From Kofleriaceae bacterium (lineage in GTDB: Bacteria; Myxococcota_A; Polyangia; Haliangiales; Haliangiaceae): a DNA stretch of 64,000 bases. The notes under the pieces are model-generated. The model worked only from the letters and a program-made list of their open reading frames with translations. It ran no database searches and was not told the origin of the DNA. The stretch is taken from the NCBI GenBank assembly GCA_964203225.1, contig CAXNMK010000002.1, positions 673,664-737,663 on the forward strand, given 5' to 3'. This document shows positions 3,918-59,988 of this stretch, piece after piece. Within the stretch, counting starts at the first letter, position 1. Each line of letters opens with the position of its first letter. The position numbers and the translations under genes were made by a program.

Positions 3918-5269
3918 GTGAGCGAGCTCCTCGCGCGTCTCCCCGCGGTCCATGCCCTCGTCGACGCGGCCACCGCCGCCGGCTCCGCGCCCCGGTGGGC
4001 GATCGTCGAGGCGGCGCGCCGCGCGATCGCGGACCGGCGCGCCGCGCTGCTCGCCGACCGTGCGACCGATCCGGCGATCGATCCGGCCGCCGTCGCGGCC
4101 GCCGCCACCGAGCTCGCGCGCCCACGTCTGCGCCCCGTGATCAACGCGACCGGCGTGGTGCTCCACACCAACCTGGACGCGCCCCGCTCGCGGCGGCCGC
4201 GCGCGCGGCGATCGACGAGGTCGCCCGCGGCTACTCGAACCTCGAGTACGACCTCGACACCGGCGAGCGCGGCTCGCGCCACGACCACCTCCGCGAGCTG
4301 CTGCGCGAGCTGACCGGCGCCGAGGACGCGGCCGTGGTCAACAACAACGCCGCCGCCACCGTGCTCGGCCTCGCCGCGCTCGCCACCGAGCGCGAGATCA
4401 TCGTGTCGCGCGGCGAGCTCGTCGAGATCGGCGGCTCGTTCCGGCTGCCCGAGATCCTCGCCCTGTCGCGCGGCGTGATGGTCGAGGTCGGCACCACCAA
4501 CAAGACCCACCTCCGCGACTACGAGAGCGCGCTGCGGCCCGCCACCGCCTTGCTGCTCAAGGTGCACCGCGCGAACTTCGCGATCGTCGGGTTCACCAGC
4601 GAGGTCGTCCCCGAGGTGCTGGTGGCGCTCGGCCGTCCGCGCGGCGTCGCCACCATGATCGACCTCGGCTCGGGCGCGATGATCGATCGCGAGACCCAGC
4701 GCGCGTGGGGCCTCCCCGAGGAGCCCACCGTCGCCGAAGCGGTCGCGACCGGCGCCGATCTGGTGACGTTCTCCGGCGACAAGCTGCTCGGCGGCCCGCA
4801 GGCCGGGATCGTGGTCGGCACGCGCGCTGCGGTCGAGCGCGTCCGCACGCACCCGCTGATGCGCGCGATGCGTCCGGACAAGCTCACGCTCGCCGGCCTG
4901 GCCGCCACGCTGGGACTGTACCGCGAACGCCGGCTCGCCGATCTGCCCGCGCTGCGGATGCTCGGCGCGCCCGCGGACGCGGTCGCGGTCACCGCCCACG
5001 AACTCGCCGCCGCGATCGGCGCGGTCCGCGGGCTCACCATCGCCGTCGAGGCGTGTGCGTCGACGGTCGGCGGCGGCGCGATGCCGACCGCCTCGCTGCC
5101 GTCGTGGGCGGTCACCCTGGCCGGGGCGTCCGCGGACGAGCTCGATCGCGGGCTGCGCCGGGCGTCGATCGTCGGCCGGATCGAGGCGGGGCGGATGTGG
5201 CTGGACGTGCGGACGGTGCTCCCGGCCGACCTCGCCGCCGTGGCGGCCGCCGTGCGTGCCCTCGGCTGA
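3918..5269 (+). pseudogene. selA: L-seryl-tRNA(Sec) selenium transferase (selenocysteine synthase SelA), reading frame broken by a 1-nt deletion near 4173-4180
   Basis: The N-terminal ORF 3918..4313 ends in ...RLRPVINATGVVLHTNLDAPRS. The second frame (3884..5269) continues ...GRAPLAAAARAAIDEVARGYSNLEYDLDTGERGSRH.. and matches the SelA fold through to the C-terminus. The expected HTNLGRAPL motif is restored by inserting one G in CTGGACGC. Confidence 0.7.
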
Positions 5270-5325
5270 CGGGCCGGGCGCCCCGCGCACGCAGTGCTTG
5301 ACCCCGGTGCGCGGATCGCGCTTAG

Positions 5326-54216: not shown

Positions 54217-55008
<792 letters not shown>

Positions 55009-55119
55009 CGTGGCGGGACCATGGCGCAAACCCACGGCCGCCGCAATCCTGCCGGGTACCGACGGTGGGGCGCCGACCGGGGGGCGCGCTCGAGGGCCGC
55101 GCGGGCTATCCTGTGCGCG

Positions 55120-57879
<2,760 letters not shown>

Positions 57880-57950
57880 GGTCCGTGCCGAAACGACAAC
57901 GGCCGCGGAGGGCCTCCGCGCCCAGGCTGCTCACGCGAGCGGTCGGGTGG

Positions 57951-58115
57951 TTAGGGCCCGCGAATGGACATCTCAATCGCCCTCGCGGTCGATCCATCCC
58001 CGGGGGCGTCGTTGCTCCTCGGTCGCGTACCGACGGGTACGCTCCCTCGTCGCGCCTCGCCCGCGGGGCGGCTCGCCCACGAGTATCGATCGATTTGTCC
58101 ATTCGCGGGCCCTTA
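57951..58115. mobile_element. MITE-like element: perfect 17-bp terminal inverted repeats GGGCCCGCGAATGGACA (57954-57970) and TGTCCATTCGCGGGCCC (58096-58112) flanked by TTA direct repeats
   Basis: The two 17-mers are exact reverse complements, read directly. A 125-bp core lies between them and contains the small palindrome GTACC-gac-GGTAC. TTA appears immediately outside both repeats. It is located in the HK-RR intergenic region. Confidence 0.5.
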
Positions 58116-58420
58116 CTTGCCGAACCGGTAGCTCGTGAACATCGCGTCCATGCGGGCGTCCTGGCCCGCGGTGAACGTGTTCATGCAGGCGTCGTCGGTG
58201 AGCTCCCTGAAGTTCTCCGCGGTGTCACGTGGCGGCCTCCATCGTGATCAGGGGCTCGACCTCCGGCAGGCATCCCGCGGGTTTGCCAGATTGTCAGCGG
58301 TGATCCGACCGGCTGACATGGTGGCACGGCAGGCCCTTCGGACCGGAGAGACCTGCTAGTAATTCCTGATGGTTGCATGGAATCACAGGTGGCCCACGGC
58401 TTGTTAAGGGGAACAGGGAG

Positions 58421-59988
<1,568 letters not shown>

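Follow-up and report, generated by a model that had tools for sequence, protein, structure and literature searches.

The window, by which we mean the whole 64-kb stretch of DNA analysed, carries on its plus strand a sensor histidine kinase (HK) gene followed by the gene of a sigma-54 activator, and in the gap between them, from the kinase stop codon (57877–57879) to the regulator ATG, lies a perfect 17-nt inverted repeat made of GGGCCCGCGAATGGACA and its exact reverse complement, with TTA on both outer sides (Table 1). Perfect 17-bp terminal inverted repeats with TTA flanks had been reported here by a first-pass annotation of the sequence, and they are found exactly where it placed them; a repeat finder returns the same two arms, extended to 37 nt at 81% complementarity. 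The annotation had also placed the element in a gap of 540 bp between kinase and regulator. The position between the two genes holds, but the 541-nt gap contains in addition, on the minus strand, the relic of an M43 metalloprotease gene.

Table 1. Features of the kinase–regulator gap and of the adjoining genes, in window coordinates
Feature	Position	Strand	Remarks
Sensor histidine kinase, HAMP/HisKA/HATPase	54346–57879	+	3' end toward the element
Short G+C-rich hairpin	57901–57923	.	GGCCGCGGAGG / CCTCCGCGCCC; also in L084; the element lies between this hairpin and the relic
Left copy of 3-bp target-site duplication	57951–57953	.	TTA
Body of the proposed MITE, 159 bp	57954–58112	+	Family-model orientation; fold-back, without coding capacity; from nhmmer and hairpin folds
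Left terminal inverted repeat	57954–57970	+	17 nt without mismatch in this copy
Apical stem-loop of the fold-back	58025–58042	.	GCGTACC-GACG-GGTACGC
Right terminal inverted repeat	58096–58112	-	Exact reverse complement of the left repeat
Right copy of target-site duplication	58113–58115	-	TTA; on the minus strand the TAA stop of the M43 relic
Relic, C-terminal end of an M43 metalloprotease gene (pappalysin/ulilysin/mirolysin type)	58113–58247	-	Insertion target
Upstream block of the regulator	58282–58420	+	Inverted repeat TGTCAGC...GCTGACA and TGGC motifs; kept in four of four aligned loci
NtrC-family sigma-54 activator, receiver and AAA+ domains	58421–59608	+	Frameshifted

The relic can be identified most clearly through its 77-aa version in the closest relative of the locus, L084 (5353–5586), which among PDB sequences has matches to ulilysin, to pappalysins and, with E 4.4e-8, to the C-terminal part of mirolysin; Pfam Peptidase_M43 reaches a sub-threshold E of 0.031 on that version, and the 37–39-aa relic of the window has no Pfam match. 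The minus-strand translation in the window ends ...NFRELTDDACMNTFTAGQDARMDAMFTSYRFGK*, with the right-hand TTA as its stop codon. Compared with L084 the window relic is shorter, with further deletions and an in-frame stop 44 codons upstream. Among the orthologous loci it was seen only in these two, and it is more degraded in the window. It is thus the stop codon of a defunct gene remnant that the element occupies, and this remnant and the kinase gene are arranged tail-to-tail. The short hairpin that precedes the element would be the native 3' hairpin of either the relic or the HK.

Both flanking genes need some qualification. The true start of the kinase is probably further downstream, since its orthologues have ~920 aa. 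In the regulator, a net 2-nt insertion relative to L084 at 59596–59610 (GAGCTATGACTTGG versus GAGTATGGTTGG) brings in a premature TGA at 59606–59608, and the remainder of the lid and the HTH run on in another frame to ~59978, with orthologues having 494–539 aa (mostly 500–526). Either the gene is truly a pseudogene or the frameshift is an assembly error. The protein is 87–98% identical to proteins of Kofleriaceae MAGs in a homology search, which places the window in this family or close to it, and an exact look-up of the window regulator protein gave no match, probably because of the frameshift. Type II secretion genes (gspC, D, E and F homologues) follow downstream of the regulator. The conserved block upstream of the regulator is probably its own promoter and activator-binding region. 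An effect of the element on regulator expression, as had been suggested by the first-pass annotation, is unlikely, since this block begins ~170 nt downstream of the insertion and is intact. Most likely the element is neutral at this locus, and its strong hairpin could at most hinder read-through from the kinase gene.

A dispersed family and its insertion sites

An nhmmer profile built from short copies of the element matches the window copy over model positions 1–159 (126.5 bits, E 4.8e-37) and finds at least 70 copies or fragments in total, window included. Within the window there is one copy, both by the profile and by a search for the 17-mer with up to 3 mismatches. A 17-mer scan across one genome per species returned at least 83 loci, among the listed matches mostly in three Myxococcota MAGs: Deltaproteobacteria bacterium SJ783 (JADZDP01) with at least 35 copies or fragments, Myxococcales bacterium Baikal-deep-G131 (SHYY01) with at least 23, and Myxococcales bacterium BP4.bin10 (JAJXSP01) with at least 4. 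A Kofleriaceae MAG (L021) contributes at least one copy or fragment, and six metagenome matches represent five distinct sites, four of them with the element and one (L088) with a weak fragment. Counting copies of the 17-mer and of the whole element had been proposed as a check on the initial idea of a transposon, and the outcome, a multi-copy element in related Myxococcota genomes, supports it. The copies in the carrier MAGs all have different flanks. Many of the 17-mer matches lie within ~150 nt of contig ends, as would result from a repeat that breaks short-read assemblies.

Matches to the 17-mer in 22 non-myxobacterial genomes are due to chance: their surroundings are unrelated, none of the 22 matches the profile (among the matches listed), and by our own estimate ~50 chance matches to the 17-mer are to be expected in a collection of this size. 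One of these loci, in Arthrobacter sp. UYEF3 (L062 660–900 and 2600–3100), contains an unrelated local repeat without a profile match, in which the 17-mer or near-copies of it occur three times within 350 nt together with repeated GGGACATGCTCAT motifs.

The window copy is 92.5% identical to a metagenome copy (L090) and 78–84% identical to the three MAG subfamilies, while the Kofleriaceae-type subfamily extends to four more metagenome sites. These Kofleriaceae-type metagenome copies are few and have decayed ends, so that in the lineage of the window the family may be inactive by now and present in low copy number. Nor is the insertion demonstrably recent, to judge from a window copy that is 7.5% off its nearest known relative. 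The termini are retained by every complete copy of the family, whose consensus terminal inverted repeat extends to ~26 nt (GGGCCCGCGAATGGACAACTCAGTCG), and GGGCCCGCGAATGG is the form of the terminus that would have to be matched in any partner element. The element has polarity: just inside the termini, the two arms consistently differ in sequence. The arms are spaced by either 141–143 nt or ~165–181 nt, giving a short form of 158–160 bp and a long form of 182–198 bp, which has an extra hairpin of ~32 nt. In long variants of 189–192 bp (for example L005 6241–6431, L025 3894–4084, L035 1262–1452 and L065 6983–7173) the 32-nt insert is near model position 58 and contains a G+C hairpin with TTCTGT directly after it (GGGGGGCTTGCCCCCCTTCTGT); in one BP4 copy (L042) this position is taken by a different insert. 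At L002 2364–2617 a 93-bp internal-deletion derivative adjoins a full copy with one TAA common to both, which implies that the second insertion used the duplicated target of the first. In the papers that could be searched we found no description of this MITE family, of myxobacterial MITEs or of MITEs that target stop codons, and the family is apparently undescribed.

A 3-bp target-site duplication had been proposed from the TTA flanks, and the family bears it out: identical 3-nt flanks are found in 20 of the 33 complete copies (10 TAA/TAA, 9 TTA/TTA and 1 TCA/TCA), compared with 2.5% expected by chance for identical flanking 3-mers, and mixed TAA/TTA flanks occur in only 3 of the 33, the rest being decayed. 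TWA (TAA plus TTA) makes up just 0.19% of positions in the carrier genomes. C precedes the duplication in 32 of 49 ends and G follows it in 31 of 52, which gives S-TWA-S as the target, with CTWAG preferred. We also considered a 2-bp TA duplication of IS630/mariner type, and rejected it because flanks of TAA/TAA or TTA/TTA cannot be re-registered as TA plus a longer terminal inverted repeat.

Orthologous loci allow the filled site to be compared with an empty one. In L084, where the regulator is 98% identical, the layout is kinase, minus-strand 77-aa ORF and regulator, with a gap of 530 nt, and the window without the element and one TTA is colinear with L084 across the junction (window ...GCGGTCGGGTGG-TTA-CTTGCCGAACCGG...; L084 ...GCG---GGGTGGGGC-CTA-CTTGTTGAAGCGG..., which begins CTTG after CTA). 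The empty site reads CTA, not TTA; a TTA would have been the pre-insertion target at the window site, L084 having CTA. As the L084 site is empty, insertion is placed after the two lineages separated; that L084 lost the element by excision is unlikely, since its site bears no visible footprint. A search of relatives for an empty site, likewise proposed beforehand, thus came out in favour of insertion, with five further orthologous loci also lacking the element: the profile has no match below E 0.2 in any of the six (L084, L085, L086, L093, L094 and L095). In L085, L086, L093 and L095 only 161–206 nt separate the kinase stop from the regulator start, with neither relic nor element.

The kinase–regulator gap gathers foreign DNA which differs by lineage. 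In L094 (1887–2826) it holds fragments of a sodium:dicarboxylate symporter gene, and L084 has ~82 extra nt just past the kinase stop (~5195–5275), with CTGAG repeats at both bounds.

Fold-back structure, stop codons and alternative readings

The 125 bp between the terminal repeats were originally thought to contain internal small palindromes. RNA folds of both strands reveal instead one continuous imperfect hairpin: the fold of 57940–58126 reaches −113.7 kcal/mol on the plus strand (z −7.1) and −125.9 kcal/mol on the minus strand (z −10.5). A consensus hairpin of 48 pairs, derived from 24 short copies of four subfamilies, has 96% paired cells versus 32–48% when partners are slid, and compensatory changes in 12 pairs versus 2–4 in the slid controls, where near-identical copies within a subfamily mean few independent events. 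In the apical stem the sequence differs per subfamily while the stem is kept (GTGG/CCAC in SJ783, ATAC/GTAT in Baikal, ATCC/GGAT in BP4). Symmetric changes in a DNA palindrome can, however, also arise by hairpin-templated repair, without selection. Five half-elements break exactly at the apex of the fold-back (L008 1437–1515, L013 5428–5513, L021 3906–4032, L073 48–172 and L081 4884–4985), a pattern that would fit breakage in vivo at the tip of a hairpin or cruciform followed by repair.

Between 57600 and 58500 we found no U-tract or terminator-like site of an intrinsic terminator on either strand, and no promoter-like sites. No Rfam family reaches its gathering score, the best being che1 with 28.1 bits versus 54.1 required (E 0.074). 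This weak match covers 57904–57973, that is, the short hairpin and the left terminus, and we take it as chance.

For the position of the copies relative to genes, we counted only genes that read toward the element with their stop codon, since in high-G+C DNA the antisense frame looks coding as well. With this restriction the duplication is the true stop codon of a long ORF (GC3 ~0.84–1.0) in 13 of the 32 complete copies. Element-free TWA sites in the same loci comprise 6 true stops, 75 sites inside coding sequence and 176 elsewhere, so that stop-codon occupancy is 13/32 versus 6/182 for non-coding background TWA sites (Fisher p 2.5e-8). With single ends included, the stop codon is the duplicated triplet in 20 independent genes. 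This excess would follow from the loss of insertions that fall in genes, from the preferred G/C-flanked TWA that is typical of stops after G+C-rich coding sequence and from the duplication restoring the stop. At true stops, the end next to the gene is the right one in 16 cases and the left one in 4 (binomial p 0.012), and the strand that would be in mRNA sense in the right-end orientation has the more stable fold in 27 of 33 copies (mean difference 7.9 kcal/mol), the window copy being no exception.

How, then, should the feature be read? Very probably it is one copy of a non-autonomous DNA transposon (MITE) of a family abundant in some Myxococcota: it has terminal inverted repeats, a duplicated host target and small size, carries no transposase gene, is multi-copy in three MAGs, and its sites are found both filled and empty. 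An accidental palindrome is a negligible prospect. Although short inverted repeats abound in high-G+C DNA (13 pairs in 900 nt here), only ~0.02 perfect 17-nt inverted repeats with arms within 400 nt are expected per window at 70% G+C composition, and the full-length match to the profile (E 4.8e-37) and the rest of the family evidence refute such an origin in G+C-rich intergenic DNA. The first-pass annotation had offered a regulatory hairpin or sRNA as its alternative, which finds no support as the primary identity, given the sub-threshold Rfam scores and the many unrelated contexts of the family. That the feature is an immobile cis-regulatory hairpin or small RNA dedicated to the kinase–regulator locus is highly improbable: the very stable fold (z −7 to −10) and the position between the gene of a sensor kinase and that of its partner regulator would suit such a role, but the hairpin is missing from six orthologous loci, the closest relative included, the same sequence with target duplications stands beside dozens of unrelated genes, the che1 score is far from its threshold, and the conserved regulatory block of the regulator is elsewhere, at 58282–58420. 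We give as little credence to a palindromic element of the REP/REPIN or IS200/IS605 type, which a Y1 (HUH) transposase would move via single-stranded hairpins and without target duplication. It would explain why the entire element is a hairpin, why half-elements are broken exactly at the apex and why no DDE partner turned up in flanking DNA, plasmids or viral contigs. Yet the flanks vary between TAA, TTA and TCA and still pair within a copy on both sides (19 paired TWA versus 3 mixed), which marks them as duplicated host sequence and not a one-sided motif, whereas IS200/IS605-type elements insert 3' of a fixed tetra- or pentanucleotide and have neither terminal inverted repeats nor a duplication; the element ends in genuine inverted repeats of some length, without mismatch in the window copy, and neither a REP-like GTAG head nor a REP-doublet arrangement is visible.

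A further reading adds to the MITE interpretation instead of competing with it. The MITE may also have been co-opted as an RNA module which, placed at stop codons, would supply a 3'-UTR hairpin as a stabiliser or a read-through barrier; we regard this as conceivable, if doubtful. It draws on the right-end bias at true stop codons (16 versus 4, all 20 genes being independent), on the better-folding strand being the one that such mRNAs would carry (27/33 copies) and on the stem being kept by compensatory changes across subfamilies. On the other hand, copies 4–55 nt past a stop codon have no such bias, if anything the opposite one (9 left versus 4 right), the largest subfamily, SJ783, lacks strand asymmetry, copies within one subfamily are not independent, which reduces the sample to about four lineages in effect, neither a U-tract nor a terminator-like site is present, and hairpin-templated correction could have produced the compensatory changes. 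In the window an RNA role is inapplicable, as the adjoining gene is a dead relic. The more specific proposal that Myxococcota recruited the family as a portable 3'-end RNA hairpin, with its preference for TAA stops, favoured orientation and compensatory pairing, whereby mRNA would be stabilised or read-through blocked, we consider unlikely. Should the orientation bias be borne out by complete genomes, a role at the RNA level would be suggested.

Proposed mechanism and comparison with known systems

For the MITE that we favour, the following scheme can be proposed. A DDE transposase supplied in trans would bind both GGGCCCGCGAATGGACA termini, excise the element and insert it at 5'-S-TWA-S-3' with a 3-nt staggered cut, the repair of which would duplicate TWA. 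From the type of duplication alone, the transposase would be of the IS5 or PIF-Harbinger kind (IS1031/IS427-like). In a genome of ~70% G+C, TWA is rare and G/C-flanked TWA would be found largely at TAA stops, so the element would often land on stops, which the duplication would rebuild. Here it would have entered the TAA stop of the decayed M43 fragment on the minus strand, so that two convergent 3' ends are now separated by a hairpin of great stability that lacks a U-tract.

A link to IS5-family transposases had been drawn in the first-pass annotation. The type of duplication (TWA, in a C-TWA-G-like target) agrees with it. No transposase, IS end or autonomous element with matching termini was found in ~420 kb of MAG flanking DNA, in plasmids or in viral contigs. 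Paired 14-nt termini 400–4000 bp apart were sought across 95 loci, where all partners had 3 mismatches and are put down to chance; blastn against plasmids returned nothing beyond short chance matches in Streptomyces, and the 17-mer is absent from the viral contigs. The ORFs adjoining two half-copies (L008 and L081) were examined as a possible parent IS and set aside as ordinary genes or spurious frames.

For annotation, the feature should be labelled as a copy of a mobile element and not as a regulatory RNA of the kinase–regulator pair, and the profile can be used to mask dozens of similar repeats that break assemblies of Myxococcota MAGs. More generally, an element that targets TWA in a 70% G+C genome is funnelled onto TAA stops and rebuilds them, a tidy example of how target choice together with base composition can make insertions harmless. 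Only the landing on stop codons and the orientation bias might repay more work; apart from these two points this is an ordinary MITE copy of modest importance.

Among known elements, IS1237 of Leifsonia xyli, a member of the IS427/IS1031 group of the IS5 family, produces a TTA/TAA duplication in a high-G+C actinobacterium (PMC2516522). The present element resembles IS1237 and IS5-derived MITEs in its short size, terminal inverted repeats, 3-bp TTA/TAA duplication, high-G+C host and many copies mostly outside genes. The termini of IS1237 (GAGGTGGTTTCAGTAGTCG) are, however, unrelated in sequence to GGGCCCGCGAATGGACA, and in contrast to IS5-derived MITEs the body is entirely fold-back, not a deletion derivative with IS-internal sequence, and no cognate IS was found. 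PIF/Harbinger elements and Tourist-like MITEs of eukaryotes also duplicate TWA, within a CTTAG-like extended target. The TWA duplication, the palindromic target of C-TWA-G type and the G-rich termini are all features shared with our element. Canonical Harbinger elements likewise generate 3-bp duplications (PMC12730594). The likeness is one of duplication and target type, not of sequence, and the present host is bacterial, with no transposase or Myb-like partner found.

Correia elements have a TA duplication, IHF sites and promoter elements. The present family differs from them in duplicating TWA, in its 70% G+C and in that no promoter-like or terminator-like motif was found. With the Correia (CREE, Neisseria), ERIC and RUP elements as a group (listed in PMC3184786) it shares a 100–160-bp fold-back with terminal inverted repeats, dozens to hundreds of copies, a frequent position just downstream of genes and very stable RNA hairpins. 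The working definition of a bacterial MITE combines terminal inverted repeats and direct repeats with a stable fold and with sites that are filled in some genomes and empty in others. It was applied to the Nezha MITE of Anabaena/Nostoc, for which ISNpu3, the partner IS with matching ends, has been seen in another species only (PMC3184786). The same defining logic applies here, including filled and empty orthologous sites in related species, although the phylum and the sequence are different and for Nezha the partner ISNpu3 was identified, while for the present element none was found. Finally, RAYT-mobilised REP/REPIN sequences are also extragenic palindromic repeats near the 3' ends of genes, but REPs are units of 20–40 nt without target duplication, whereas the element described here has 159 bp, long terminal inverted repeats and a 3-bp duplication.
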